26,029 nucleotides of DNA, from positions 1 through 26,029 of the IMG/VR virus record IMGVR_UViG_2671180637_000024; one strand, 5' to 3'. Of the stretch, positions 1,536 through 26,029 are shown in pieces; the stretch's first letter is position 1, and each line of letters begins with the position of its first letter. The position numbers and the translations under genes were made by a program. The notes under the pieces are model-generated. The model was not told where the DNA came from. It worked only from the letters and a program-made list of their open reading frames with translations, and did not search any database. This DNA is from a virus (taxonomy: Duplodnaviria; Heunggongvirae; Uroviricota; Caudoviricetes).

Positions 1536-3158
1536 ATGCCGTTACCATTCCCCTTCGATTTTAAACATCCTGATTACCAGATGGTTTTTGAATGGCGGAT
1601 GGAACGCCTACAGCGCATTCGCCAGAATCCTGAAATATTGCCCGTATTGAAGCAGTTTTACCGAACCAATCCGGCTCAGTTCATCATCGACTGGGGCATG
1701 ACAACGGACCCGCGTAATATTGATTATGGCCTGCCGGTGACCATTCCGTTTTTACTCTTCCCTAAGCAGGAGGAGTGGATCCACTGGATTATGGAACGCT
1801 GGGGCAATCGGGAGAATGGTATTACCGAAAAATCCCGTGAAATGGGGCTCAGTTGGACCGCGATCGGACTGGCCTGCTCGCTTTGTCTCTTCAACAAAGA
1901 AATGGTTATCGGTTTCGGCTCCCGTAAAGAGGAATACGTCGACAGCACTGGTGACCCGAAAGCATTGTTCTGGAAGGCACGCAAGTTCGTGGAAACGCTA
2001 CCTGTAGAGTTTCGCGGTTCGTGGAGCGAGAAGAAGCACGCGCCATATATGCGTGTTGAGTTTCCTGAAACTGGTGCCGTTATCAAAGGCGAGGCTGGCG
2101 ATAATATTGGTCGTGGTGACCGTACCACGCTTTATCTGGTTGATGAGGCTGCATTCCTTCAGCGTCCTCTGCTGATTGATGCGGCGTTGTCACAAACGAC
2201 GCGTTGCCGTATCGACCTGAGTTCAGTTAACGGCATGGCTAACCCGTTCGCTCAGAAGCGTCATGGCGGGAAGATACCGGTATTCACATTCCACTGGCGG
2301 GATGATCCTCGCAAGGATGAAGAGTGGTATCGCAGGGAATGCGAGAAAATCGATAATCCGGTGGTGGTGGCACAGGAACTTGATCTGAACTACAGCGCAT
2401 CAGCGGAAGGCGTTCTGATTCCATCCGAATGGGTACAGGCTGCCGTTGATGCGCATATCAAACTGGGTATCCAGCCAACAGGCAAACGACTTGGCGCGAT
2501 GGATGTCGCCGACGAAGGCAGGGACAAAAATGCCTTTTCCACCCGTCATGGCTTCCTCCTGGAAAATGTGCGGGAATGGTCCGGTGTGGGCAGCGACATT
2601 TATCAGTCCGTCGAGAAGGTTTTCGGCTTTTGCGAACAGGACAACCTCGAAGAGTTTCGCTTTGACGAGGACGGGCTGGGCGCTGGCGTTCGCGGCGATG
2701 CACGCGCTATCAACGAACTGCGTAACGCTGCGCGTCGACCGTCAATACTTGCCACACCGTTTCGAGGTAGTGGCGCGGTATTTGATCCGGATGATGAAGC
2801 TGTTCGCGGGGACAACGGGCAAGCCGCACGTCTGAACAAGGACTTCTTCGCTAACGCCAAAGCCCAGAGCTGGTGGCGGTTACGTAAACTTTTTCAGAAT
2901 ACCTGGCGCGCCGTGGTTGAAGGTATGGCTTACAACCCGGACGAAATCATCTCAATCAGCAGTAGCATGGCACTCAAAGATAAACTCATCATCGAGCTTT
3001 CGCAGCCGACCTATTCCATTAATGGTGTGGGAAAAATCGTTATTGATAAACAGCCTGATGGAACCCGATCGCCAAACCTTGCCGACTCGGTGATGATCAA
3101 CTATGCCCCAATGAATTCAGCCCTGAACATCTGGGAGCTGCTAGGGAGACAGGCCTGA
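1536..3158 (+). CDS. terminase large subunit
   Basis: 540-aa product immediately after small terminase and before portal; contains ATPase-like and nuclease-like regions (e.g. [11 protein letters not shown] Walker-B-like stretch). Family assigned by size, synteny and motif recollection. Confidence 0.85.
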
Positions 3159-10051: not shown

Positions 10052-11197
10052 ATGGCACAGGGCTTGCCTGTATCAAACGTTGTTAATGTTGATGTGATCA
10101 TGTCGCCGCGTGCAGCATCAGGGCGAAATTTTGGTGCATTACTCATTCTCGGCCCATCCACAATCATTCCGGTAAGTGAGCGCATTCGCCGTTATTCTGC
10201 CGCGGAAGATATTGGAAAAGATTTTGGCGTGGAATCACCAGAATATAAGGCTGCGCAGGTGTTTTTCTCACAATCACCGAAACCTCAGGAGGTTTTTGTT
10301 GGTCGTTGGGTGAAAACGAAGGGAGACAGCGAACAGGCCACGCCTGAGACGCTGGAGCAGGCTGTGAATGCCATGCTCGATTATACTTCATGGTATGGGC
10401 TGGGGATTGCAGACGATGAAGATATTCCGGATGCAGACTGGCTGAAAGTGGCTGCGGCGATCGAATCCTCTTCTGTAAGCCGTATTCTGGCGATTACGAC
10501 AAGCGATGAGAAATGCCTGCAGACTGCATCCAGCGATGATTTGGCATCAAAACTGAAAACCGCCGGATATTCACGCAGTTTTATTCAGTATTCATCGGGT
10601 AATAAATACGCTGCGTTATCTGCATTTGGCCGGGCATTCACGGTTAATTTCAATGGCAGTAATACCGCGATTACGCTCAAGTTTAAGCAGGAGCCGGGTG
10701 TCGGGTATGAAACACTGACAGTCAGCCAGGCATCGGCACTTGATGCAAAAAACTGCAATGTGTTCGTGTACTACCAGAATGATACGGCTATCCTCCAGCA
10801 GGGAGTGATGGCTAACGGCGATTTCTTTGATGAACGCCACGGCCTGGACTGGTTACAGAATTATGTGCAGACCAGCCTCTATAACCTGCTTTATACCAGC
10901 ACCACGAAAGTTCCCCAGACTGAAGCCGGTATTACCCGACTGTTATCAAATGTTGAAAAATCACTGGATCAGGCCGTTCAGAATGGACTGATTGCTCCGG
11001 GCGTATGGAACGGGGGCGACCTTGGCCAGTTGTCATCAGGTGACACGCTGCCCAAAGGTTATTACGTATACGCCCAGCCGCTGGATGAACAGGCACAATC
11101 AGAACGTGAAGCCCGTAAGGCTCCGGTGATTCAGGCTGCAATAAAACTTGCAGGCGCGGTTCATTACGCTGACGTACAGATTAACGTTGTTCGCTAA
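10052..11197 (+). CDS. tail sheath protein
   Basis: 381-aa product directly upstream of a tube-sized gene, chaperone with frameshift and tape measure: the canonical contractile-tail order. Confidence 0.6.
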
Positions 11198-11651: not shown

Positions 11652-12104
11652 ATGGAATTCGAAATTAAAGGCGTGAAATATCGCGCGGCAAAACTCAGCG
11701 TTTTTGACCAGCTGAAAGTGACCCGTAAACTTCTTCCGGTACTGGCGGGAATGATGTCAGATTTCGGGAGCATTCGCTCCCGTTTGCCTGCTGACGGCAA
11801 AATCGACACCGTGAAATTCGAGCAGTTAAAACCGGTGTTTGAAACCATGCTCCCGCGTATCGCTGAGGAACTGTCTTCCCTGACCGAAGATGACACCGAT
11901 GCGATTATTCATCCCTGTCTTGCGGTGGTATCGCGGCGTCATATGGACGGATGGGTTCCGGTATTTACCCAGGGCGAACTGATGTTTGATGATATTGACT
12001 TGCTGGTCATGCTGCAGCTGGTGGCGCGGGTGGTCGCCGATTCGCTGGGAAATTTTTTGCCTACACCCCTTACCAGCACGACGCAGAGCCTGCAACAGGG
12101 CTGA
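11652..12104 (+). CDS. tail assembly chaperone (frame-0 product)
   Basis: 150-aa ORF directly upstream of the tape measure gene, with a slippery run AAATTTTTTG near its 3' end and an open -1 frame extension. Confidence 0.6.
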   Translation: MEFEIKGVKYRAAKLSVFDQLKVTRKLLPVLAGMMSDFGSIRSRLPADGKIDTVKFEQLKPVFETMLPRIAEELSSLTEDDTDAIIHPCLAVVSRRHMDGWVPVFTQGELMFDDIDLLVMLQLVARVVADSLGNFLPTPLTSTTQSLQQG

Positions 12105-12292
12105 CGTTTAACAGCCTGCCGGACGGGCTGTCCTACCTTCTCAATCCGGTTGACGCCGGGTTAATTCCTTATACAGCACTTAAAGATGGCTCTGTCGATT
12201 TGTACGATATTGCTCTTTTGAATGACCATCTGGCGGTAAAAGCGGATAACCAGCGGCGCATTGAGAAATGGAGAGAGGATAATGAACGCTGA
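12050..12292 (+). CDS. -1 frame extension of the tail assembly chaperone (predicted programmed frameshift product, G-T type)
   Basis: The frame shifted by -1 is open from the slippery heptamers A_AAT_TTT (12050-12056) / T_TTT_TTG (12053-12059) to TGA at 12290-12292, encoding …TFNSLPDGLSYLLNPVDAGLIPYTALKDGSVDLYDIALLNDHLAVKADNQRRIEKWREDNER; it has no start codon of its own. Confidence 0.45.
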   Translation, partial: KFFAYTPYQHDAEPATGLTFNSLPDGLSYLLNPVDAGLIPYTALKDGSVDLYDIALLNDHLAVKADNQRRIEKWREDNER

Positions 12293-14270
12293 AACTATTA
12301 AAGATTTCCTCGTCTCGCTTGGCTTCAGTGTGGATGATGCAGGAGCGAAAAAGTTCGGTTCTGTCCTCGCCGGTACAACTGCAAATGTCATCAAAATGGG
12401 GCTGGCCGTTGAAGGAGCCGCGCTGTCCGTGGTGGCCTTCACGGCTAAGATCGCCTCCGGTCTGGATAATCTTTACTGGGCGTCACAGCGCACTGGAGCG
12501 ACAGTCCAGGGAATTCAGTCTATTGGCTATGCGGTTTCGCAGGTTGGCGGCAGCGTGGACGCTGCGCGATCTTCTCTGGAAAGCCTCTCCCGGTTTATTC
12601 GTAATAATCCCGGTGCAGAGGGATTTCTGAATCGCCTGGGGGTACAGACACGGGATGCCAGCGGTAACATGCGTGACATGGCCGCTATTTTTACAGGTGT
12701 AGGCCAGAAGCTCAGCGGCATGCCGTATTACCGGGCTAACCAGTATGCGCAGATGCTGGGCATTGACGAAAATACCCTTATGGCGATGCGTCGGGGTGTG
12801 GGTGGTTTCTCCGGGCAGTACAGCGCAATGGCGAAAGCTATCGGCTTCAATGCTGACGAGGCGGCCAGAAGCTCCAACAAATTTATGACCTCCCTGCGTG
12901 AGTTTAGCGCGATGGCAGGCATGGCCCGTGACAAAATCGGCTCTAATCTTGCGGGTGGACTTGCGGGGTCGCTGGACACCCTGCGCCGCCATATCCTGGA
13001 CAACTTCCCGCGCATCGAGCAGACTCTGACGAAAGCCATAAAAGGCATTCTGGCGCTCGGGGATATTATCGGGCGGCTGTTCTTCAGACTGATTGAGGGG
13101 ACATCAGGCCTTATCACCTGGTGGCAATCGCTGGATAAGCAAACGCGGGAGTTGATCTCGCTGTTTGGCGCACTGACGATTGCGCTGCGCATTCTGAACA
13201 GTACGTTCTGGATGTCGCCGATTGGCCTCATTACCGCGCTGGCGGCGGGGATTGCCCTCCTGTGGGAGGACTATCAGACCTGGAAGGAAGGCGGCGACAG
13301 CCTGATTGACTGGGGCAAGTGGAAACCGGAGGTCGATGCCGCGCTGAAGATGGTTCGTGACCTTAAAACAACCGTTAACGACCTGGTGAAAGCGCTGGCG
13401 AAACTGCTCAATATTGACCTCAAATCATGGTCCCTGAAGTGGGATTTCAGCAACTTCATCGACCAGATGGGCGAATTCAGCAAAATGCTGAACATGATCG
13501 CCGACCTGCTCAACGCTATCAAAGATGGCCGCTGGGCTGATGCCGTCAGCATCGGCAAACAGATACTTAATCAGGGCAGCGAAAATCCGTCAGCGATGCC
13601 GATGGTTACAGACAGCGCTAACAGTACTGCCGACTGGATTAAAGAGCACTGGGGATTCGATCCCCGCAGCGTGGGCCGGACGGTACGCGGCTGGTTTGGT
13701 GATGATGAGCCGGAACAACATGCACAGGCTACGAAACGAGGAGAACGGAATAACAATCCGGGAAACCTTAATTTTGCTGGTCAGGCAGGGGCTTCTCTTG
13801 AACGCCCGGGCGGGCGATTTGCCAGATTTGAAACTGCCTTTGATGGATTACGGGCTCTTGCTCGTCAGTTAATGCTGTACGCCGGACGGGGAATAAACAG
13901 TGTGGAGAAAATTATCTCTACCTGGGCACCTGCGTCTGATAATAACAACACAACTGCGTATATCAGGGCTGTATCGCAACGACTGGGAGTGGATCCCCGG
14001 GCTGCCCTGAATATGAGCGATCCGCAAACCATGTCAGCATTGATGAGCAGCATTATCCAGCATGAAAATGGAAGAAATATCTATTCTCGAGAGCTGATTA
14101 ATAAGGCTGCCGTGGCGGGAATTAGTGGCAAAATGACAGAGGTTAACCAGCAAAATACTTACCACATTTACGGTGGCGGAGATCCGCACGCTGTCGGTAA
14201 TGAGGTTGCACGTCGGCAACAGTCTGCAAATGCTCAGGTCATGCGAAGTAATCAGGTGAGGGTGGGTTAG
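12282..14270 (+). CDS. tail tape measure protein
   Basis: Long helical protein rich in A/G/L/S/M after the chaperone/frameshift pair; ATG at 12282 preceded by GGAGAGAGG is the likely start (ORF track start 12261). Confidence 0.8.
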   Translation: MNAETIKDFLVSLGFSVDDAGAKKFGSVLAGTTANVIKMGLAVEGAALSVVAFTAKIASGLDNLYWASQRTGATVQGIQSIGYAVSQVGGSVDAARSSLESLSRFIRNNPGAEGFLNRLGVQTRDASGNMRDMAAIFTGVGQKLSGMPYYRANQYAQMLGIDENTLMAMRRGVGGFSGQYSAMAKAIGFNADEAARSSNKFMTSLREFSAMAGMARDKIGSNLAGGLAGSLDTLRRHILDNFPRIEQTLTKAIKGILALGDIIGRLFFRLIEGTSGLITWWQSLDKQTRELISLFGALTIALRILNSTFWMSPIGLITALAAGIALLWEDYQTWKEGGDSLIDWGKWKPEVDAALKMVRDLKTTVNDLVKALAKLLNIDLKSWSLKWDFSNFIDQMGEFSKMLNMIADLLNAIKDGRWADAVSIGKQILNQGSENPSAMPMVTDSANSTADWIKEHWGFDPRSVGRTVRGWFGDDEPEQHAQATKRGERNNNPGNLNFAGQAGASLERPGGRFARFETAFDGLRALARQLMLYAGRGINSVEKIISTWAPASDNNNTTAYIRAVSQRLGVDPRAALNMSDPQTMSALMSSIIQHENGRNIYSRELINKAAVAGISGKMTEVNQQNTYHIYGGGDPHAVGNEVARRQQSANAQVMRSNQVRVG

Positions 14271-14857
14271 TGGATATTCTCTCTACACTTTTTCATCAGC
14301 AGAGCAGAAAAATAGGAATGATTGTTCCCAGTGTTGTTATTTCAGAGAAGCATACAGATATGCTTGAAATAACAGAGCATCCGGTAGAGGTTGGGGCCGC
14401 TGTCGCTGATCATGCCTATAAAAAACCGTCAGAAGTGGTGATGGAGGTTGGTTTCGCCGGTGGCGGCGCATTGCTGGATTTTGCCAGTAATCTGACGGCT
14501 ACCAGCCTGCTCGGCCTGAGTCCTCAGCAGACGTATCAGGAGCTACTGGATCTGCAGGAAAGCCGTATCCCCTTCGATGTGGTAACCGGTAAACGACTGT
14601 ACAGCAACATGTTGATCCGGGCGTTGGAAGTGACGACGGACAAGACAACCGAAAACGTCCTGTCCGCCGTCCTCACCCTGAGGGAGGTCATTATCTCCCG
14701 GACACAGCAGATTACCGTCGCGGATAAAACCAACATGAAGGAAGGGGCCAGCACGTCGGCGGTACAGAACAGCGGCAACAAAACCACAAAGCCTCCAGAT
14801 ACTTCACTGCTGAAAAGCATCACGGGTAACGTGGCGTCATTACTGGGGGGCGGCTAA
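14270..14857 (+). CDS. tail/baseplate assembly protein
   Basis: 195-aa ORF starting with GTG overlapping the tape measure stop (TAGTG), with GAGGGTGGG upstream; function inferred from position. Confidence 0.5.
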   Translation: MDILSTLFHQQSRKIGMIVPSVVISEKHTDMLEITEHPVEVGAAVADHAYKKPSEVVMEVGFAGGGALLDFASNLTATSLLGLSPQQTYQELLDLQESRIPFDVVTGKRLYSNMLIRALEVTTDKTTENVLSAVLTLREVIISRTQQITVADKTNMKEGASTSAVQNSGNKTTKPPDTSLLKSITGNVASLLGGG

Positions 14858-15159
14858 TGACAATTCAGGAAATTCCGCTGACAGCGGACAACCAGCAGTT
14901 CAGCATCGTCCTGGGGGGTGTCACCTGGCGGATTAGCATCATATGGCGCGATCTGTACTGGATTATGGACCTGCAGAACGACAGAGGGGAGCCGGTAATC
15001 TCCGGTATTCCTCTTGTCACTGGTGCTGACCTGCTGGCGCAGTACGCCTGTATGGGGCTTGGTTTTAAGCTGGTGGTGGTCTGTGATGACAACACACAGG
15101 ATTACCCCACAAAAACTGACCTGGGCGGTCGCAGCCATTTACTGGTATCAACGGAGTAA
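14857..15159 (+). CDS. small tail/baseplate protein
   Basis: 100-aa ORF with TAATG overlap to the upstream gene. Confidence 0.5.
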   Translation: MTIQEIPLTADNQQFSIVLGGVTWRISIIWRDLYWIMDLQNDRGEPVISGIPLVTGADLLAQYACMGLGFKLVVVCDDNTQDYPTKTDLGGRSHLLVSTE

Positions 15160-15161
15160 GC

Positions 15162-16223
15162 ATGTCACAGAACTGGATGAGACATTTCGAGCTGCAGCTT
15201 GTGGACGGGAACGGTCAGGGAATTGAGCTAAGTGATTTCAAAGTCACCTTTACGATCGACTGGTTCAACATCAGCAGCGCGTCCCGGGTAGGGACTATCA
15301 AAATTTATAACCTCTCGGCAGATACTGTGAACCGAATTACCGGGCAGGAGTTTTCGAAAGTGCGTCTGATTGCGGGTTACGACGGTATCGCGCCGGAGGG
15401 GTCGGCAAGCGACGTCGGGACAGTGCGGGAAGTTGACGCGGCGGACGTGGGCCAGAGTGATGGTCGCAACTACGGACTGATTTTCAGCGGTGAAATTCGC
15501 TACTCGGTCACAGGAAAAGACAGTCCGGTTGATTCCTACGTCCTGATTCAGGCAGCAGATACTGATCTGGCTTTTGCCACCAGTATAACCTCACAGACGC
15601 TGGCTGCCGGTTACACGGTCGCTGATGTGAACCGTGCGCTGATGAAAGACTTCGAAGCCAAAGGTGTGACCGAAGGCCTGACGCCTGAAATGCCTGCTAC
15701 TGTATTCCCCCGGGGGCGGGTACTCTTTGGCATGACGCGGCATCTAATGGATAACGTAGCCGGGCAATGTGGCGCAACATGGCAATTCGTGGACGGTCAG
15801 CGCCAGATGGTGGCGAATAACGAATATGTTCATGAAGCGATTGTGCTCAACAGCGCTACCGGGCTTATTGGCATGCCGCAGCAGACTATCGGTAACGGCG
15901 TAAACGTCCGCGCGCTTATTAATCCGAACATCCGGGTTAACGGACTTATTCTGCTGGATCAGGCTTCCGTGTATCGTACTGCCTTGTCGAACAACGATAT
16001 TGCGATGGCTGGTGGTCAGATCACCGACCAGAACACGGATGGAAATATCACGCTAAGCGGCACCACATCGCAGCCTGCCAGCATCGCAACGGATGGCGTT
16101 TATATTGTGCGCGGGATTATGTACACTGGCGACACAAGGGGCCAGGCGTGGTACATGGATATGATGTGCGAAGCGCGTGGCGCGGCGGATCTGTATACGC
16201 GATCGGCTTTGCAAAGGGGATGA
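15162..16223 (+). CDS. putative baseplate hub protein (P2 gpD / Mu gpP-like)
   Basis: 353-aa product between tape-measure-proximal genes and baseplate spike; size and position match hub proteins of P2/Mu-type tails. Confidence 0.55.
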   Translation: MSQNWMRHFELQLVDGNGQGIELSDFKVTFTIDWFNISSASRVGTIKIYNLSADTVNRITGQEFSKVRLIAGYDGIAPEGSASDVGTVREVDAADVGQSDGRNYGLIFSGEIRYSVTGKDSPVDSYVLIQAADTDLAFATSITSQTLAAGYTVADVNRALMKDFEAKGVTEGLTPEMPATVFPRGRVLFGMTRHLMDNVAGQCGATWQFVDGQRQMVANNEYVHEAIVLNSATGLIGMPQQTIGNGVNVRALINPNIRVNGLILLDQASVYRTALSNNDIAMAGGQITDQNTDGNITLSGTTSQPASIATDGVYIVRGIMYTGDTRGQAWYMDMMCEARGAADLYTRSALQRG

Positions 16224-16226
16224 GCA

Positions 16227-16568
16227 ATGAGGGGTATTATTTTTCTGTTAGCTGTCTTTTCTGCGTGCAGCGCGTGGGCGGATGGCTTCACGGTTAAATG
16301 CGGTGGCTACACTATGGTTGCAAACCAGGGCGAGTTATCGACTATCAACGGTGAAAGAGTTACCTCTCAAAAAATCACCGAACTGGGTACCAATGGTTTG
16401 AAAGTAGACATGGGGCTTATGCCTGCCAAAGACGGTAACAACTACGGCTTTGAATACATTCGTCGCCCTGGTACCGAAACGCGATTCCTGAATGTCCAGC
16501 TTCTGCAGAACAGCATGGATGCGCCGAAAATCATCGGATCTTTCCCTTGTAAAAAAGTGGCTGGGTGA
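16227..16568 (+). CDS. small exported protein (signal peptide; possible lipoprotein)
   Basis: N-terminus MRGIIFLLAVFSACSAWADG: hydrophobic core then either an AXA signal peptidase I site (AWA|D) or a lipobox-like FSAC; 113 aa; no structural-protein character. Confidence 0.55.
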   Translation: MRGIIFLLAVFSACSAWADGFTVKCGGYTMVANQGELSTINGERVTSQKITELGTNGLKVDMGLMPAKDGNNYGFEYIRRPGTETRFLNVQLLQNSMDAPKIIGSFPCKKVAG

Positions 16569-16661
16569 AGGTAACCTGAAATTCGTAACGCCTGAAAAAC
16601 AACAAAATGTGCTCTAAAAACTGTTGTTTTTTGAGACGAGCGATTACACTGCACTGACTTT

Positions 16662-16688
16662 TTGATGGTGGATTGCCATCGATATGCT
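16662..16688 (+). promoter_or_regulatory. candidate sigma70-like promoter for the accessory cassette
   Basis: TTGATG (16662-16667), 15-nt spacer, TATGCT (16683-16688), about 30 nt upstream of the cassette start codon; weak match, spacing suboptimal. Confidence 0.3.
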
Positions 16689-16717
16689 ACTTCATTAAAG
16701 CCAGGAATAACTAAAAC

Positions 16718-17449
16718 ATGAGTTTAGCGCAGCCAAAATCAGGAGAACTGTTAGATCTTCTGACTCCTTCATTAACTAAGGGTGAAAACCTTCTGAGTGA
16801 GTTTGAAATCCATCGAATCATTCGTGAAGCGAAGAAACTACCTGAACGTTATCAGGGGCTATCAATTGAAGGCTTAGCTAAGCTTGTTCTTGGTGAAATA
16901 GATGAAGGATGTTCACTCTGTGAGCGGGGGTTGAGAATAGCGCCTAACGATCCAGTTTCTTTTTGTAACTATACGATTGCGCTGCGTAACTTAGGTTTGC
17001 ATGCTCGCCAGTATGTGATGATTCAGAAAGCATCTGATTCACTTAATCCAACGATATTGGCTGAGGTTGCTACAATTTCTGCATACTGGGTTGATATCGA
17101 TTTGCTTGAAAAGGTGATGCCGATGCTAACTGCAATGGAAGTACCGCGCCCTGAAGATATGGGCAAATGGTATGACACGCTCAATTATCTGCATACCCAA
17201 AAAGATCATGCTCAGGAGCTAAAAACTATTGGGCGGCTCATGATGAACGTTGCAGAAAAGTACCGCGCTCGTCTTGCTGGCGCTCATGCTTTTTATGTAA
17301 TGTCAGAACTTGATACGCTGTTCGTTGAAGTCAAAACAGACGATCCAGTGCTTCTTTCGCAGATGAATAATGCCTTGGCTGATGAGATTATTATTGCGGG
17401 GCTTGCGGATTCAGAATGCGTCGGATGCTTTGAAGCCGGGGAACTCTAA
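16718..17449 (+). CDS. accessory cassette gene A: hypothetical helical protein (243 aa), candidate partner of the HEPN-like protein
   Basis: Clean ORF with AGGA upstream; lower GC than flanking tail genes; predicted mostly helical with a TPR-like stretch (GLRIAPNDPVSFCNYTIALRNLGLHARQ); no nucleotidyltransferase GS…DxD motif seen. Stop overlaps gene B start (TAATG). Confidence 0.6.
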   Translation: MSLAQPKSGELLDLLTPSLTKGENLLSEFEIHRIIREAKKLPERYQGLSIEGLAKLVLGEIDEGCSLCERGLRIAPNDPVSFCNYTIALRNLGLHARQYVMIQKASDSLNPTILAEVATISAYWVDIDLLEKVMPMLTAMEVPRPEDMGKWYDTLNYLHTQKDHAQELKTIGRLMMNVAEKYRARLAGAHAFYVMSELDTLFVEVKTDDPVLLSQMNNALADEIIIAGLADSECVGCFEAGEL

Positions 17450-17877
17450 TGTCGGTTGAGCATACCTGTTTTCTTGAATTGGCTAAGCATTCCCTGGCTC
17501 TAAACGGTGAGATGTGGACGAGAAATGCTATTAGCCGAGCATACTATGGTATGTACCATTCCGCCTTACGGATCACCAACAATCTGGTACCGACCGCTAC
17601 ACAAGATGGTGAAAAACTAAAAGGTGGAGTTCACATGCGAGTCTATACGGCCTTTTGTAGTGGTGAGGCAGCTGCACTTAACGATGTTGATGTTAACGCA
17701 GTAAAGAAAATCGGCGTTAAACTGAAAATGACGCATGCCCAACGTGTTAATTCTGATTACAAGCTTGAGCGGAAAATCAACCGGATTACCGCGAGAAGTG
17801 TAATTCTGGATGCGGAAGAGGTCGATGCAATCGTTAATCAATTACTGAAGATTGGTGATGACTCGTTAACTGCATAA
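17449..17877 (+). CDS. accessory cassette gene B: HEPN-like domain protein (142 aa)
   Basis: Contains SRAYYGMYHSALR (aa 29-41), GGVHMRVYTAF (aa 59-69) and RVNSDY (aa 99-104) followed by an acidic C-terminal helix; this matches my recollection of the classical HEPN consensus (SRAYYAMFHAAKALL … H … R..ADY). Assignment is from memory, not an HMM hit. Confidence 0.6.
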   Translation: MSVEHTCFLELAKHSLALNGEMWTRNAISRAYYGMYHSALRITNNLVPTATQDGEKLKGGVHMRVYTAFCSGEAAALNDVDVNAVKKIGVKLKMTHAQRVNSDYKLERKINRITARSVILDAEEVDAIVNQLLKIGDDSLTA

Positions 17878-17900
17878 GCTGAAATTTCTCAAAATTCAAA

Positions 17901-17923
17901 CCCGCCACTTGGCGGGTTTTTTG
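17901..17923 (+). terminator. rho-independent terminator downstream of the accessory cassette
   Basis: cccgcc-actt-ggcggg perfect 6-bp GC stem (17901-17916) followed by TTTTTT (17917-17922). Confidence 0.7.
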
Positions 17924-17941
17924 CTTTCTGGAGCCTACTAA

Positions 17942-18694
17942 ATGGCAGTATCTGACCAGACCCGCAGCGGCGACCTTGCCGAAACATTTAAATCCGAACA
18001 GGAAACAACAAAGAACCAGATCCGTGTCGCCTTGCCTGGCATTGTTCAGTCATTCGCTCCTGATGCGGTGACGGCGGTTGTACAGCCTGCTATCCGTTAC
18101 GTTGAAATTGATAACGACGGCAACCGCATTACCAAAAATTACCCATTGCTGGTGGATGTGCCAGTGGTATTCCCGCGTGGCGGAAGCTGTACGCTAACGT
18201 TTCCAGTTAAAGCCGGTGATGAATGTTTGGTGATTTTTGCCGATCGTTGTATTGATTTCTGGTGGCAGAGTGGCGGGATACAGGAGCCGGTCGATGACAG
18301 AATGCATGATTTATCGGATGCGTTTTGTATTGTCGGTCCCCAGTCGCAGGCAAGGAAGATTAGCGGTATTAATACCAGTGCCACACAGTTGCGTAGTGAT
18401 GACGGCAGCACCTATTTTGAGCTTAATCCTGATACCAGGAAAATTAAAATTGTCGCTCCGGGGGGCCTTGATGTGGTTGCCCCTCTGGCTGATTTTTCTG
18501 AGAAAGTAACCATTCATGGCCTGTTAACCTGGATGGGAGGCATGGTGGGGTCTGTTGTTTCTGGTGTGGCTTCAAAAATCACTGGTGCTGTTGAGTTTTT
18601 GGGTAGCGTGAAGGCTAACGGCAAGCCAATCGATGATACGCACACTCATGGTGGTGTTCAGCGCGGTGGAAGCAATACCGACGGAGTAAACTGA
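17942..18694 (+). CDS. baseplate spike / assembly protein V-like
   Basis: 250-aa product with glycine-rich C-terminus, directly upstream of W- and J-like baseplate genes (V-W-J-I order of P2/Mu-type baseplates); GGAG Shine-Dalgarno. Confidence 0.65.
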   Translation: MAVSDQTRSGDLAETFKSEQETTKNQIRVALPGIVQSFAPDAVTAVVQPAIRYVEIDNDGNRITKNYPLLVDVPVVFPRGGSCTLTFPVKAGDECLVIFADRCIDFWWQSGGIQEPVDDRMHDLSDAFCIVGPQSQARKISGINTSATQLRSDDGSTYFELNPDTRKIKIVAPGGLDVVAPLADFSEKVTIHGLLTWMGGMVGSVVSGVASKITGAVEFLGSVKANGKPIDDTHTHGGVQRGGSNTDGVN

Positions 18695-19047
18695 TGCGAT
18701 ACAGACGTGAAGACGCCGATGGCGATTACACCTTTGGCAGCGGTGATGACACCTGGCTGATTAACTCACCGGAGGCCGTGGCGCAGGCGGTAAAAACGCG
18801 ATTCGAATTGTGGTATGGGCAATGGTTTCTCGACACCACCGAGGGGACTCCGTGGATCCAGTTCGTACTCGGTAAGCAGAAGCCGGAAACCTACAACCTG
18901 GCGATCCGTAAGCGCATCCTCGAAACGCAGGGCGTTAAATCAATCCTCTCTTTCAATACGACGGTGGATACCACGACCCGACGTGTCATGTTTTCCGCTG
19001 AAATCGACACTCTTTATGGAATAACGACTGTTACATCGGAGGCGTAA
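18694..19047 (+). CDS. baseplate protein W-like (gp25 family)
   Basis: 117-aa product, ATGA overlap with the upstream gene, between V-like and J-like genes. Confidence 0.65.
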   Translation: MRYRREDADGDYTFGSGDDTWLINSPEAVAQAVKTRFELWYGQWFLDTTEGTPWIQFVLGKQKPETYNLAIRKRILETQGVKSILSFNTTVDTTTRRVMFSAEIDTLYGITTVTSEA

Positions 19048-20246
19048 TGGCTCTGAACCTTGATTCTCTCGGTTTATCTGCAAAGGTAACCGCGGAGGGG
19101 ATCAGTGCGCCTGATTATCAGACGATACTCAGCACCCTGATTAGCTATTTTCAGCAGATTTATGGCAGTGATGCCTACCTCGAACCGGACAGCAAAGACG
19201 GCCAGATGGTGGCTCTGATGGCGCTGGCGATTCATGATGCCAATAATACGGCGATAACTGTCTACAACTGTTTTTCACCGGCAACCGGCTATGGGGCTGC
19301 ACTGACCAGTAACGTGAAAATAAATGGTATTTCACGTAAAGGCGCGACGAACTCTACGGTTGATTTGCTTCTTACAGGAACTGCCGGAACAACCATCATT
19401 AATGGCAGCGTGAAAGACAGTAATAATGTGATATGGCGTTTGCCTGCTTCAGTGGTGGTAGGCGTGAATGGTACAGTGATGGTGACCGCAACATGTTCCG
19501 TCAGTGGCGCAGTGGCGGCGCTGGCTGGAACTATCACTGAAATTAATACGCCAACCCGTGGCTGGGTTTCGGTAACCAATCCTGCTGCAGCCACTGTGGG
19601 CACTCCGGCAGAAACTGATGCGGAGTTACGTATCCGCCAGTCGCAAAGTGTTGCGTTGCCATCAATAACCCCATTTGAAGCACTGGATGGTGCTGTTTCT
19701 AATGTTACCGGTGTAACCCGCCACAAACTCTATGAAAACGATACTGGTTCGGAGGACGGTAATGGGTTACCGCCACACTCTGTTGCTGTAATTGTGGATG
19801 GCGGTGATGTGACGGATATTGCTCAGGCCATCAGAGGGAATAAAGGCCAGGGGACAGCCACTCACGGTACAACATCCGTTACGGTTCCGGATAAATACGG
19901 CAATCCCCATGTAATCAAATTCTCGCGTTCCAGTGATGTGCCTGTTTATGCCCGGATTAAATTAAAAGTTTTTACGGGTTATACCTCACAGATAGGGCAG
20001 CAGATCCAGCAGGCTATTTCCGACTATATCAATAGTCTTACGATCGGTGATTCGGTCCTTTTAAGTCGCATTTACTCACCGGCGAATCTTGGCGTGGTGA
20101 GTGGCGGGAATGCACGCTATTACGATATTCAGGAACTGACGATTGGGAAATCCCCGGGGGCTTTGTCGTCATCAAACATTGATATCAGATATAACGAATC
20201 TGCGTCCTGTACCCCGGAAAATATCGTTATAACGGTGGAGTCATGA
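19047..20246 (+). CDS. baseplate protein J-like
   Basis: 399-aa product following the W-like gene, TAATG coupling. Confidence 0.7.
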   Translation: MALNLDSLGLSAKVTAEGISAPDYQTILSTLISYFQQIYGSDAYLEPDSKDGQMVALMALAIHDANNTAITVYNCFSPATGYGAALTSNVKINGISRKGATNSTVDLLLTGTAGTTIINGSVKDSNNVIWRLPASVVVGVNGTVMVTATCSVSGAVAALAGTITEINTPTRGWVSVTNPAAATVGTPAETDAELRIRQSQSVALPSITPFEALDGAVSNVTGVTRHKLYENDTGSEDGNGLPPHSVAVIVDGGDVTDIAQAIRGNKGQGTATHGTTSVTVPDKYGNPHVIKFSRSSDVPVYARIKLKVFTGYTSQIGQQIQQAISDYINSLTIGDSVLLSRIYSPANLGVVSGGNARYYDIQELTIGKSPGALSSSNIDIRYNESASCTPENIVITVES

Positions 20247-20923
20247 GCAAATACACCGAACTAATCACAAACTACCACGCCACCAAACCTAAATTTCTTT
20301 CACATGTTGATCTGATGACCAGGCCGCTTATTGATGTTGCGGCTGCCACCAGAGGGCTGATTACTGCATTTGATATTGACTCTGCGGTTGGTGTGCAACT
20401 TGACATTCTGGGATTGTGGATCGGACGTAGCCGTGTTGTCAGCCAGCCTATCTCAGGTGTCTATTTCAGTTGGGATACCGACGGGCTTGGATATGATCAG
20501 GGGGTATGGCAGGGGCCATATGATCCTGATTCCGGATACATGTATCTCAGCGATGAAACTTATCGTGTCATTCTTAAAGCGAAGATTGCGATTAATAACT
20601 GGGACGGACGTAATGATTCGCTTCCGGCAATTCTTGACGCGGCAACAGCAGGATCCGGGCTGCGAATGCAGATAGTCGATAACCAGGACATGACGATATC
20701 GGTCTGGGTCTTTCCTGATACTGATATTTCAGATGTATCGCGTGAGTTAATTGCGGCAATTAAACAGGGGTATCTCACAGTAAAAGCCGCCGGGGTATGG
20801 GCGGGGGGCATTGAAACTCCTTCGGTGGAAACCCCATCGGAAGGCTCAAAATTTTTTGGTTTTGATATGGATAACGAATTCATCAGTGGTTTTGATGTAG
20901 GAGCATGGGGAGTATTACTCTGA
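20243..20923 (+). CDS. tail protein I-like (baseplate wedge/tail fibre attachment)
   Basis: 226-aa product between J-like and tail fibre genes, ATGA coupling at both ends. Confidence 0.55.
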
Positions 20924-21717
20924 TGGCGAAAAATGACTTTAAAGCGTTTGCAACTGATCGAAATGCCAATGTTATGTCGCAGGAGGAATGGGAAGCGTTG
21001 CCTGCGCTTTTATCCGGATTTACAGCAGGGAAAGCATCCAGTGCGCAGGTGAACAAAGCCATTCGACAGGCCAGCTTTATTGCTGCAGCTTTGGCCCAGT
21101 TTGTAAGTGACAAAACGCAACGGGATGTGCTTGATAATGGTGATCTGCCCGGTTTTGTTGAATTGCTTGGATCGGGGTTTGCTGTTGAATACCTGAGCCG
21201 CAAAAATCCGTTTGGCGATATCAAATCGGACGGCACAGTGAAAACGGCTCTCGAAAACCTTGGTTTGGGAGAAGGTGCCCCAGCTATTGGCGTTCCGTTC
21301 TTCTGGCCCTCCGCGGCAATGCCAAATACTGTAATCGACAGCTGGTCCGGTATGGTGTTTTTGAAGTTCAACGGGGCGAAATTTTCTGCCTCTGATTACC
21401 CTGTGCTGGCGAAAGTGTTTCCTTCGCTGGTATTACCTGAAGCCCGCGGTGATTTCATTCGTATCTGGGATGACGGGCGAGGTGCAGATGGTGGTCGCGA
21501 ATTATTAAGCTGGCAGGAAGCTACAAACTTTTCTCAGTTTGCCGGGAATATAGGCGGAGGTGCGGGACACGCAATTAACTTTCATGATGGCATTGCCGGA
21601 AATCAGCCAGGATTTTCACGATTTAATTTCACCAGTAACTCTGTGGGTGATGGTGTGAATTTTGTTGCTGTCAGACCGCGAAATATTGCATTTAACTTTC
21701 TGGTGAGGGCTAAATAA
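20923..21717 (+). CDS. tail fibre protein (constant N-terminal part plus currently expressed variable C-terminal part)
   Basis: Precedes a tail fibre assembly gene; contains the left hix/gix-like crossover site in-frame at 21248-21273. ATG 20923 (ATGA overlap, GGGGAG upstream) preferred over ATG 20905. Confidence 0.7.
21248..21273 (+). repeat. left recombination (crossover) site of the invertible tail-fibre segment
   Basis: CTCTCGAAAACC-TT-GGTTTGGGAGAA resembles the hixL site as I recall it (TTCTTGAAAACC-AA-GGTTTTTGATAA); present in inverted orientation at 22994-23019. Confidence 0.6.
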
Positions 21718-22310
21718 TGAAACCTGTTTTTGATAAAAATGGGCTGGCTACAGTGCCGGGCGATATGCGTTGTTTTTATTATGATGCTGAAACATCTGAG
21801 TATACGGGCTGGTCTGATGAATATATTAATACTGGCGTAAGTATGCCCGCCTGTTCCACTGGTATTGACCCGGGCGAAAACATTCCGGGGAAAGTGGCAG
21901 TATTTACGGGTAAGGGATGGAGCCATGAAGAAGACCATCGCAATGAGACTGTTTACTCAACAGAAAATGGCGCAGCTGTTACAGTGGATTATATCGGTGC
22001 CATCAAAAACGGTTATGTCACGCTTTCACCGTTAACGACATATGATAAATGGGATGGTGAGAAATGGGTGACAGATACTGAGGCACAGCATAACGCCGCA
22101 GTAGAAGCAGCAGAAGCACAGCGCCAGTCACTGATTGATGCAGCAATGGCTTCCATTAGTCTGATTCAGCTGAAATTACAGGCCGGACGGAAACTGACTC
22201 AGGCAGAAACAACCCGACTTAACGCCGTGCTGGATTACATTGACGCGGTGACGGCAACAGATACCAGCACCGCGCCGGATGTCATCTGGCCTGAACTGCC
22301 GGAGGCGTAG
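21717..22310 (+). CDS. tail fibre assembly protein (expressed orientation)
   Basis: 197-aa product following the tail fibre gene with TAATG coupling; C-terminal TSTAPDVIWP motif shared with the oppositely oriented copy. Confidence 0.75.
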   Translation: MKPVFDKNGLATVPGDMRCFYYDAETSEYTGWSDEYINTGVSMPACSTGIDPGENIPGKVAVFTGKGWSHEEDHRNETVYSTENGAAVTVDYIGAIKNGYVTLSPLTTYDKWDGEKWVTDTEAQHNAAVEAAEAQRQSLIDAAMASISLIQLKLQAGRKLTQAETTRLNAVLDYIDAVTATDTSTAPDVIWPELPEA

Positions 22311-22710
22311 GCCATTCAATATCGGGTGCTGTTGACGTATCAACACGCATCAGCAGCACACGGTATTTCTTCCATTGGGTGAGAGCTGTAGCTTCTTCAT
22401 CAGTTGCGATATCAGCATCAACAGCATCCTGATGCCAGGATATTTCACTGTCAGCTTTTTCCCGTAATTGGGATTTTTTAACTTCAGCAATAGCTATTAA
22501 TTCCTTTTTGGTCGGCTGAGGAATATCTATCAGTGCTGGTTTTCCATTCAGTGTTCCAATCTGTTTTCCTGGTGGAATATCCATAAATAACTTTTTATGT
22601 TCTTCCTCACTGACTATTAAACCATCATCAGGCCACAGACCTGATGCCTCAAATTTTTCTTTCTCCGATATGGGGAAAAAGCCATTTGCTTTAGCGCTCC
22701 ATACGTACAT
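22282..22710 (-). CDS. alternative tail fibre assembly protein (silent orientation)
   Basis: 142-aa minus-strand ORF converging on and overlapping the + strand tail-fibre assembly gene by 29 nt; C-terminal TSTAPDIEWP motif; directly follows the alternative fibre segment. Confidence 0.7.
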   Translation of the reverse strand: MYVWSAKANGFFPISEKEKFEASGLWPDDGLIVSEEEHKKLFMDIPPGKQIGTLNGKPALIDIPQPTKKELIAIAEVKKSQLREKADSEISWHQDAVDADIATDEEATALTQWKKYRVLLMRVDTSTAPDIEWPTPPAVQAR

Positions 22711-22711
22711 A

Positions 22712-23005
22712 TCAATACCCCACCGCTATAATGTCCACATTAAATCCCCCGGGACCTGCCTGCCAGATGCTGGCCCCTGTTAATGATTTTGTTTGATGAA
22801 CAACCGCCACATTTGCTGGCGATAGTGTTTCAGTTGTTACAGTACCGATATCATTCCAGTTAATTGAGATGGAATAGTTCGTTGTTGTAAACGACCGGGG
22901 GAAAGTTATGTGTCTTGCATTGGTGCCAACAGGAAATCCAAGATAAACACGCTGAATTATCATTCCTCCAGGTAACATAACCCAGTTAGCACCTTCTCCA
23001 AAACC
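22712..23005 (-). CDS. alternative tail fibre variable C-terminal segment (promoterless; expressed only after inversion)
   Basis: Minus-strand frame …GFGEGANWVML… aligns with the + strand fibre at …GLGEGAPAI… exactly at the crossover site; inversion at the 2-bp core would give an in-frame fusion to the constant N-terminal 113 codons. Confidence 0.6.
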   Translation of the reverse strand, partial: GFGEGANWVMLPGGMIIQRVYLGFPVGTNARHITFPRSFTTTNYSISINWNDIGTVTTETLSPANVAVVHQTKSLTGASIWQAGPGGFNVDIIAVGY

Positions 23006-23019
23006 AACGTTTATGAAAA
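22994..23019 (+). repeat. right recombination (crossover) site of the invertible segment
   Basis: TTCTCCAAAACC-AA-CGTTTATGAAAA; its reverse complement matches the left site over TTGGTTTnGGAGAAGGTGC (19 of 20). Confidence 0.6.
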
Positions 23020-23073
23020 TGCAGAAATAACGAGCAAATGGCATCATTCCTGCTTTTGTCAGGGAGATCTACC

Positions 23074-23628
23074 ATGCTTATTGGCTATGTACGTGTGTCA
23101 ACAAATGACCAGAACACAGATCTACAACGTAATGCGCTGAACTGTGCAGGATGCGAGCTGATTTTTGAAGACAAGATAAGCGGTACAAAGTCCGAAAGGC
23201 CGGGGCTGAAAAAACTGCTCAGGACATTATCGGCAGGCGACACACTGGTTGTCTGGAAGCTGGATCGGCTGGGGCGCAGTATGCGGCATCTTGTCGTGCT
23301 GGTGGAGGAGTTGCGCGAACGAGGCATCAACTTTCGTAGTCTGACTGATTCAATTGATACCAGCACACCAATGGGACGCTTTTTCTTCCATGTGATGGGT
23401 GCCCTGGCTGAAATGGAACGTGAACTGATTGTTGAACGAACAAAAGCAGGACTGGAAGCTGCTCGCGCACAGGGACGAATTGGGGGACGTCGTCCCAAAC
23501 TTACACCAGAACAATGGGCGCAGGCCGGGCGATTAATTGCATCAGGCGTTCCTCGCCAGAAGGTGGCGATCATCTATGATGTTGGCGTATCGACTTTGTA
23601 TAAGAAGTTTCCGGTCGGAGATAAATGA
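23074..23628 (+). CDS. site-specific DNA invertase, serine recombinase (Hin/Gin/Cin/Pin family)
   Basis: N-terminus MLIGYVRVSTNDQNTDLQ with the catalytic serine context, plus C-terminal HTH GRRPKLTPEQ…VGVSTLYKKFP, closely matching Hin/Gin as I recall them; ATG 23074 with AGGGAG upstream (ORF track start 23038). Confidence 0.9.
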   Translation: MLIGYVRVSTNDQNTDLQRNALNCAGCELIFEDKISGTKSERPGLKKLLRTLSAGDTLVVWKLDRLGRSMRHLVVLVEELRERGINFRSLTDSIDTSTPMGRFFFHVMGALAEMERELIVERTKAGLEAARAQGRIGGRRPKLTPEQWAQAGRLIASGVPRQKVAIIYDVGVSTLYKKFPVGDK

Positions 23629-23688
23629 AACCGTAGCACGTCGTATGCAAGAAGATCGTGCTGCGGTTTATGCTTATCACTTAAAGAC

Positions 23689-24558
<870 letters not shown>

Positions 24559-24641
24559 CTAACCCTTTGAATTTACATAGCGCAAAAAGATACCTTTCCT
24601 CATAATGTGAGCTAATTTTATGTTTCGTTTGATGATCGGGT

Positions 24642-24703
24642 CGGTCTCGAAAACCGGAGTAGGGGCAACTCTACCGGGGGTTCAAATCCCCCTCTCTCCG
24701 CCA
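24642..24703 (+). other. 3' fragment of tRNA-Ser(CGA) (serU-like), the putative prophage attachment-site core (attR-type junction)
   Basis: CGGTCTCGAAAACCGGAGTAGGGGCAACTCTACCGGGGGTTCAAATCCCCCTCTCTCCGCCA matches the anticodon arm through the CCA end of E. coli tRNA-Ser(CGA) as I recall it; no matching 5' half upstream, so it is a partial copy. Confidence 0.6.
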
Positions 24704-25276
24704 CTTTATCAATGACTTATCTCCCGACTTCCCGTCTTGCTTTTCCTAAACAGAACAATCGTAGAATATTCTTGAAGGGTTAGATCGTCACTGTTTTCTG
24801 TTCGATACTGTGACATTCAGCACTTGATTCGCTATGGATCTGACAGGAAGGTTTTGAGCGAAAATCTGCAGTTATTCAGTCGTTTTCTTATCGGTCACCA
24901 TTATTCTTTTAGACATTGATCCTACAAAGCTGCCGCAAAGTTGGTGGTGGGAACTGAAGTTGCGTAGAGAAGGGGTCAATACCCGGAGGCAAACATGGGC
25001 TGGCAAAAGTGTAGCGGTATTAGGCGCAGCTATTTAGCCTAGTTATGTTTTATGAAAACTTGATATCATATAAGTGTCTTACTTATTGGCTGTAAATAAG
25101 TTTTTCCTAAGGAATTGTTTCTTGAGTATCATTTGTAACTGTAACGGAATTTATAATCCTTTGCTTTATTGTTACGGTATTTTTTATCACACCCTATTTT
25201 TAGTGGTTTTTTATACTGAAGTTTGGCAAAGTGAACTTTATATACATATACTTCATCCTGGTTTCAGTTAAATTGG

Positions 25277-26029
25277 GTGGATGATATGGCAACTACATGT
25301 TCAGTTATATTGATTTTGGAGTCCTTTGATGTTTATTTCGGAAAAGAGAGTGTGTTTCTGGAGAGAGGTTCATCTGTACTTGTCGACTCTAGCTCTAGAG
25401 ATTTTTTCCTGACATATCCTGAAAGAGTGATAGTGGCGGATTTTGGCGCTGAGTTTATTAGTCGCTATTTGAAAGCTAATAACTTAAGGGATATTTCTGA
25501 TTGTAGGGAATATCCATCTTATTTAAAAATAAACTTTGCTGACTTCAGTTTAATTAAAGGATTAATTAGTTGGGCTAATCACTGTGCTGAATACATAGAA
25601 ATTTTTGATGAGTCTATTGCTTTTACATGTCTCTCTGCATTTTCTTCTGAAAAACAATTTGGAGTATTTCTGTTTGGATGTTTGAAAAGCACAGGGGCTA
25701 AAGTTAAAACGATTATTCATACGGATTTATCTGCACCATGGCGTCTTAAGGATATATCATCAAGATTATATCTCAGCGAAAGTTTACTAAAGAGGAAATT
25801 GAAAGAAGAGGGGGTATCATTCAGTAAGATCATACTTGATGAGAGGATGCAAATGGCTGAATATTTACTCAGCACTCGTTGTTATCCTATTAGTAAAGTA
25901 GCTAAGGTCTGTGGTTATGCCAGTGTCTCATACTTTACTTATGTATTTAGACGTTATTTTGGTGTTTCTCCAAGTCAATACTCTCAGAGGAGTTCAGAAA
26001 GTAAAATTCTTACTCACCAGGGAATCTGA
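25277..26029 (+). CDS. AraC/XylS-family transcriptional regulator
   Basis: C-terminal region …ISKVAKVCGYASVSYFTYVFRRYFGVSPSQY… is a typical AraC-type HTH; AT-rich gene in AT-rich flank outside the prophage; stop at the window end. Confidence 0.7.
   Translation: MDDMATTCSVILILESFDVYFGKESVFLERGSSVLVDSSSRDFFLTYPERVIVADFGAEFISRYLKANNLRDISDCREYPSYLKINFADFSLIKGLISWANHCAEYIEIFDESIAFTCLSAFSSEKQFGVFLFGCLKSTGAKVKTIIHTDLSAPWRLKDISSRLYLSESLLKRKLKEEGVSFSKIILDERMQMAEYLLSTRCYPISKVAKVCGYASVSYFTYVFRRYFGVSPSQYSQRSSESKILTHQGI

Follow-up and report, generated by a model that had tools for sequence, protein, structure and literature searches.

The window analysed, 26,029 nt in length, comprises the first 26,029 bases of contig CYEI01000004.1 of the assembly GCA_001285545.2. 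Its right-hand end contains a nuclease gene, a partial tRNA gene with distinct flanking regions on both sides, and a regulator gene. The nuclease gene (23689–24462, minus strand) belongs to the GIY-YIG nucleases of the anti-phage defence family PD-T4-3, matching the single-gene defence system PD-T4-3 over its full length (PADLOC, E = 1.7e-140) as well as the Pfam family LEM-3_GIY-YIG. It is followed by an intergenic region (24463–24641), which also serves as the leader of the GIY-YIG gene, then by a 62-nt fragment of the tRNA-Ser(CGA) gene serU (24642–24703, plus strand), and by 278 nt of chromosomal DNA natively present downstream of serU, on the zinT/yodB side (24704–24981, plus strand). Past a breakpoint between positions 24981 and 24982 begins an AraC cassette, consisting of an AT-rich leader (24982–25285, plus strand) with the only promoter-like site of the region (25223–25252), and of a gene for an AraC/XylS-family regulator of 247 aa (25286–26029, plus strand). 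The regulator is YdeO/GadX-like, its match to the YdeO-like model of NCBIfam (3.2e-43) being below the cut-off, and the stop codon of the gene ends at the last base of the window.

The Ser fragment, which reads CGGTCTCGAAAACCGGAGTAGGGGCAACTCTACCGGGGGTTCAAATCCCCCTCTCTCCGCCA, is identical on the plus strand to positions 29–90 of serU at all 62 nucleotide positions (blastn-short, E = 1.5e-31). The serU reference was checked on the annotated native loci of ST2747 (positions 2973–3062 of locus L009) and of strain Q5 (positions 40594–40683 of locus L010). The fragment retains four of the five anticodon-stem pairs together with the loop, the long variable arm, the T arm and the 3' acceptor strand with its CCA, while nothing is left of the 5' acceptor strand or of the D arm. 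Both the coordinates and the identity are as given in the earlier note, which had recognised here about 62 nt of the 3' portion of tRNA-Ser(CGA), from the anticodon arm to the CCA, without the 5' half. ARAGORN called no tRNA genes in the window and none in the retrieved piece of the source contig (L058), which is identical to window positions 11717–26029 (14,313 nt) at the same coordinates; in the Q5 locus, the positive control, the tRNA-Ser(cga) was called. The Rfam search of the window gave no matches at the gathering threshold, and in a permissive search the best match was a partial one to the long-variable-arm tRNA-Sec model, below threshold with 27.5 bits against a gathering score of 47. 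The Ser fragment is not a functional tRNA gene, for which a full cloverleaf would have to be recognised by the tRNA finders or covariance models.

The region to the left of the fragment, corresponding to a phage (P) arm, was identical at 177 of 179 positions (99%) to the arm located left of the 62-nt repeat at the serU attR of strain Q5, and unrelated to the P arm of the ev099/SerU-LTIIb type (109/199). On the right side, the fragment and the following 278 nt (24642–24981, 62 + 278 nt) were identical to the native serU locus of ST2747 at 337 of 340 positions, and the segment 24641–24981 matched the serU locus at 96–97% in nearly all of the 5,426 complete Escherichia coli genomes. This bacterial (B') arm ends at the breakpoint, where the alignment shows the homology to the serU locus giving way to the AraC cassette (...GGGGTCAATA on the left side, CCCGGAGG... 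on the right side). The abrupt change to AT-rich flanking DNA described in the earlier note is real, but it is located at 24981/24982 and not at 24703: the GC content is 0.41 in 24704–24981 and falls to 0.33–0.35 only past the breakpoint. The breakpoint is identical in the window, in the prophage of strain 2018-10-2CC and in phage ev099, and likewise the O157:H7 Sp1 copy has the flank of 278 nt.

A chimeric query, composed of the left side of the window and the native DNA beyond position 24981, was run against the complete E. coli genomes. Five of these were found to have, at the native serU locus, the GIY-YIG gene with the intergenic arm known from the window, and zinT beyond the 62-nt repeat. 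In Q5, the order is mtfA, intact serU, three cargo genes, integrase, tail genes, an acyltransferase gene, the GIY-YIG gene, the repeat and zinT. The attL/attR repeat of Q5 is 62–64 nt long (64 nt in the comparison of boundaries) and starts on the left at the same base as the window fragment, with no leftward extension. Also in GenBank record KU052038 (SerU-LTIIb) the same 62 nt are present, annotated as a pseudo-tRNA and followed by yodB. Since the core is identical to serU, the P arm nearly identical to that of Q5, and the B' arm native, the region 24463–24981 constitutes a complete serU-type attR with P, O and B' parts. The Ser fragment, as the O part, is a relic of such a site, having the core with its boundary, a phage arm shared with a serU lysogen, and the native bacterial arm. 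The kind of origin proposed from the sequence alone, a 3' tRNA duplicate left at attR by serU-integrating phages, thus holds, the Q5 lysogen and KU052038 both showing the same repeat. In Q5 the same GIY-YIG gene adjoins the real serU attR at the att-proximal end, and judging from this arrangement it would have been the last gene in the right arm of the ancestral serU phage.

The source contig continues beyond the window, and 490 nt past it lies a 55-nt 3' fragment of the tRNA-Thr gene thrW (thrW positions 31–86; contig positions 26519–26573, L058 positions 14803–14857). This fragment is followed by a yagP-like remnant, paoDCBA and yagU, which are neighbours of the thrW locus. The resident lambdoid prophage is integrated at thrW, and its live right end is formed by the partial thrW repeat followed by thrW-locus chromosome, 1.8 kb to the right of the Ser fragment. 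When an alternative thrW-like attR was searched for in the right end of the window, only chance matches of at most 11 nt were found.

In a search of the complete E. coli genomes with the whole window, the closest was strain 2018-10-2CC, with 97% identity over 89% of the window. In this prophage region, proA and thrW are followed by the integrase, a lambdoid early region, the morphogenesis genes known from the window, Pin and the GIY-YIG gene; next come the Ser fragment, the AraC gene and an IS remnant, and finally a 47-nt thrW repeat. One more locus (L003) likewise has proA, thrW and the integrase, with the 47-nt repeat after the AraC gene and the IS remnant, and the layout of the O157:H7 locus is alike. 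Sp1/CP-933H of O157:H7 is a deleted version that agrees at the right end; beyond it lies a P4-like element (Sp2) ending in another thrW fragment. In O157 Sakai, Sp1 and Sp2 have been placed at thrW and Sp14 at serU (PMC8190617), and in EDL933 thrW has been paired with intH (PMC2951348). The exact look-up of the GIY-YIG protein gave ten related loci, nine of which have the AraC cassette at the thrW locus. Among the surveyed loci with the GIY-type P arm, a thrW repeat was located 1.56–1.83 kb past the breakpoint in ten, and two further loci with enough right flank (L020 and L030) contained no exact 19-nt thrW match. As the contig starts inside the prophage, it is these relatives together with the thrW-locus right flank that indicate thrW and its integrase at the far end.

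The thrW repeat of the source contig has a 1-nt deletion in comparison to thrW (ATTATCG-CACCA), which might impair excision of the prophage. Base 1 of the window is position 1 of the contig and lies within the lysis/terminase region; the assembly broke inside the prophage, and the attL and the early genes are located on another contig.

The block consisting of the Ser fragment with its flanks was found also in the interior of phage genomes. In ev099 the order is tail-fibre genes, Ser block, AraC gene, transposase remnant, lambda attP core, int and xis, the lambda attP core lying beside int 2,045 nt past the breakpoint. The genome of mEp332, a plaque-forming lambdoid phage (PMC3442831), carries the block internally, about 2 kb ahead of its own lambda attP, and the block is present also in prophages at the lambda site beside ybhB-bioA. 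In ev099 and mEp332, the DNA distal to the Ser site is packaged, with the fragment, the AraC gene and the transposase remnant all preceding attP and int. The Ser fragment is not a working attR of the resident prophage, as the native serU flank ends after 278 nt and the AraC cassette follows. The limited flank, the thrW attR on the contig, the thrW-type relatives and the internal copies in free phages together contradict the placement of the right end of the prophage at about 24703 in the earlier note. An intact serU with an integrase at the other end, expected in the same note, is not anticipated either, since the complete relatives carry thrW and its integrase there.

The AraC gene is prophage cargo, with the dead serU att site on its left and the live thrW att site on its right, and it is found also inside ev099 and mEp332. 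The segment 24620–26029, which contains the gene, is 99.9% identical to the Sp1/CP-933H locus of O157:H7. PatE has been described as z0321 on OI-8 of EDL933 (PMC10877973), and the near-identity to O157:H7 together with the position of the gene suggests that the gene in the window is probably patE (z0321), encoding an activator of acid resistance and repressor of LEE. In the species-representative genomes, neither the 24981/24982 junction nor relatives of the AraC protein were found.

The block was present, always with the 278-nt flank, in about 10% of the complete E. coli genomes (roughly 540), including O157:H7 Sp1/CP-933H. Its variation was surveyed in 36 loci having the exact B'/AraC junction, using fuzzy matching. 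The core had been lost from one locus, and all the 35 loci keeping a core had the chromosomal flank of 278 nt, which indicates that the junction arose once. The P arm was of the GIY type in 25 loci and of the ev099 type (ev099/LTIIb) in ten, the latter being related to the arm of the serU prophage SerU-LTIIb (141/188). The core was identical to serU in 21 copies and mutated in the remaining 14 of the 35 (40%). The mutations included changes of the T-loop TTC to GGC (nine copies) or GTC (two copies), and single-base deletions. With the core-less locus left out, about four of the 62 positions in the core and 11 of the 278 positions in the flank were variable, as counted from the table of copies. 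The core varies no less than the flank and shows no sign of selection; the frequency of mutated cores, some of them in the T-loop, identifies the core as a decaying scar and not a working site. The joining of two unrelated P arms to a single junction, on the other hand, means that at least one later exchange has taken place at or within the block, so that in the course of evolution the block has not been wholly inactive. This exchange is explained by homologous recombination in the 340-bp patch shared with real serU attR sites, and the action of an integrase at the core would leave an indistinguishable result.

Two of the loci encountered depart from the common arrangement. In L015 (GCA_051165165.1) the GIY-YIG gene and the P arm are kept, and the first 11–15 nt are all that is left of the Ser core. 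The rearrangement breakpoint is inside the core (at about 10954–10968 of this locus in window orientation), and beyond it there is unrelated DNA with ParA-like genes. The strain MS 69-1 has, besides the chromosomal copy, the Ser block and the AraC cassette on a non-chromosomal record of 64 kb (NZ_CP146678.1, match H118), which may represent a phage-plasmid, a phage circle after excision, or an error of assembly.

The region 24463–24981 is very probably a dead serU-type attR with all of its parts, which a lambdoid prophage integrated at thrW carries in its interior as cargo, close to its right end. The block most likely arose in the following way. An ancestral phage of the Q5-like type, in which the PD-T4-3 GIY-YIG gene occupies the right end, would have integrated at serU. 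The attR and 278 nt of host DNA would then have been taken into a phage genome either in an illegitimate event of the lambda-bio type, i.e. aberrant excision, or by illegitimate recombination. The captured block would have become joined to the AraC/IS cargo, upstream of an int/attP module of different specificity, and may then have spread among lambdoid phages by recombination. At present the block would have no part in releasing the resident prophage, whose excision would proceed through the thrW sites. Across the 5,426 complete E. coli genomes, neither the ancestral arrangement nor the reciprocal product, in which intact serU and 278 nt are joined to the AraC cassette, was found; the best matches in the search for the ancestral arrangement begin at the core or a few bases before it.

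That the fragment could still be the working attR of a serU prophage, with its end at about 24703 and intact serU and integrase at the other end, is suggested by the real serU lysogens Q5 and KU052038, which share the architecture and the 62–64-nt repeat, in the case of Q5 also the phage arm, and by the left end of the prophage being outside the window. This is very improbable, however, as the chromosome-like flank is cut short by the AraC cassette, intact serU joined to the cassette is absent from the complete genomes, and the source contig runs into the thrW repeat and thrW-locus genes instead of zinT/yodB; furthermore, the relatives have thrW with its integrase at the far end, and the free phages ev099 and mEp332 have the fragment in the interior of their genomes. 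The location of the O157:H7 fragment between the lambdoid remnant Sp1 and the P4-like Sp2 would fit a junction shared by two serU-using elements in a tandem array. The O157:H7 array is, however, both bounded and divided by thrW repeats (intact thrW, the 47-nt copy past the AraC gene and IS remnant, and one of 27 nt behind Sp2), it contains no intact serU, and the source contig has no second element past the thrW repeat, making a tandem origin of the fragment scarcely credible. Expression of the fragment as a tRNA-like RNA, for instance as a decoy, as half of a tRNA or as a signal for processing, is just as hard to sustain. The fragment does fold into anticodon, variable and T hairpins and gives the weak partial match to a tRNA model, but the fold is not better than that of shuffled sequence (z = -0.61), no promoter-like site is located upstream on the plus strand, and the T-loop and stem are frequently mutated among the copies, the core varying at least as much as the flank. 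A tRNA-like function was rejected on the basis of the fold z-score, the absent promoter and the decay across copies.

The interpretation of the block as a dead attR carried as cargo is compatible with one further possibility, which concerns its present-day activity: the fossil site might still be recombined, either by serU-type integrases of other phages, resident in the same cell or newly arriving, to which it would offer a secondary attB, or through its 340 bp of homology to the serU locus. Right-arm modules would in this way pass between serU phages and phages of the thrW or lambda site. The P arm and the core are intact in the window, which makes use as a putative secondary target of serU integrases possible, and of the two unrelated P arms that share one core, one 278-nt flank and one AraC junction, each is known also from genuine serU attR sites, which implies an exchange bounded exactly at the left edge of the core. 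Homologous recombination within the 340-bp block would, however, yield the same boundary with no integrase needed; the reciprocal product is lacking from the 5,426 genomes, and the core is mutated in a large share of the copies. Continuing activity of the site is consequently regarded as unlikely, if conceivable. Similarly doubtful is the suggestion that serU integrases or RecA would by this route swap right-arm modules, such as the tail fibres and the PD-T4-3 gene, between phages of differing specificity, an activity of which the two P arms on the one junction would be the footprint.

Among the known systems, the closest to the site in the window are the serU attR sites of Q5, SerU-LTIIb (KU052038) and Sp14 of Sakai, with the 62-nt duplicate, its left boundary and the 278 nt of downstream chromosome, and in Q5 also with the phage arm. 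In these sites the chromosome runs on to zinT/yodB, and intact serU and the integrase are present at the other end, whereas the site in the window has its flank cut at 278 nt, lies inside another prophage at thrW and has no partner. The pseudo-tRNA att relics of strain K-12 offer another point of comparison, for example ptwF, a thrW fragment beside intF of the cryptic prophage CP4-6. Also these are partial 3' tRNA copies resulting from site-specific integration and annotated as pseudogenes, and the pairing of ptwF with intF has been named (PMC2951348). The K-12 relics have remained at the boundary of their own element at the cognate tRNA locus, while the relic in the window has been displaced, flank included, to a different locus and now lies inside another phage genome, one that is mobile.

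Specialised transducing phages of the lambda-bio type arise by aberrant excision. They resemble the present case in having a hybrid P-O-B' att site and adjacent host DNA in the phage genome, on the side of the tail-fibre genes and the b region. Here, in contrast, the host DNA amounts to 278 nt of non-coding sequence, the functional int/attP is of another specificity (lambda attP in ev099, thrW in the prophages), and the arrangement, presumed to have arisen by such a mechanism, is fixed in natural lineages. The lambdoid prophages of thrW, such as Sp1/CP-933H and the serotype-converting phages of Shigella flexneri, are comparable to the resident element rather than to the Ser fragment: thrW lies beside proA and adjoins an integrase, and the attR contains a partial thrW repeat (PMC3306764, PMC2951348). 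O157 Sp1 is a deleted form in which a replication gene has been joined to a tail gene; in the window, the morphogenesis module is complete.

The Ser fragment is an ordinary kind of feature. The concept of a relic att site is already standard, and what is added is this particular displaced copy, no description of which was found in the literature searched. For the calling of prophage boundaries, it shows that a perfect partial tRNA beside the last phage genes need not be the junction; a boundary set at the Ser fragment would lose the AraC cargo, probably patE, and assign the wrong integration site. The block is also a natural record of att-adjacent chromosome carried into phage genomes and then spread, its copies being found both in about a tenth of the complete E. 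coli genomes and in plaque-forming phages. It supports the old idea that the cargo regions close to att sites grow through imprecise excision and recombination, and reveals no new mechanism.

Also other parts of the window differ between otherwise similar prophages. A two-gene slot in the baseplate cluster (16570–17898, with ORFs 16718–17449 and 17449–17877) is occupied by unrelated genes in prophages that are otherwise 97% identical. It holds different hypothetical genes in 2018-10-2CC, and a YafO-toxin gene together with another gene in locus L018. The two ORFs in the window had no Pfam match, and the one of 142 aa gave a marginal HEPN-like match in PADLOC (E = 0.009). The slot looks like a cargo hotspot among the tail genes. 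The exact look-up of the 142-aa protein found the same tail module at unrelated integration sites, while that of the 270-aa tail-fibre protein returned no record. The segment 22282–23628 is an invertible tail-fibre host-range switch, which includes a serine invertase of the Pin/Gin type (23038–23628; Resolvase and HTH_7 domains) adjoining the oppositely oriented ORFs of a tail-fibre C-terminus and an assembly protein (22282–22710 and 22712–23047, minus strand). In two related loci (L013 and L014) this segment is present in the flipped orientation.
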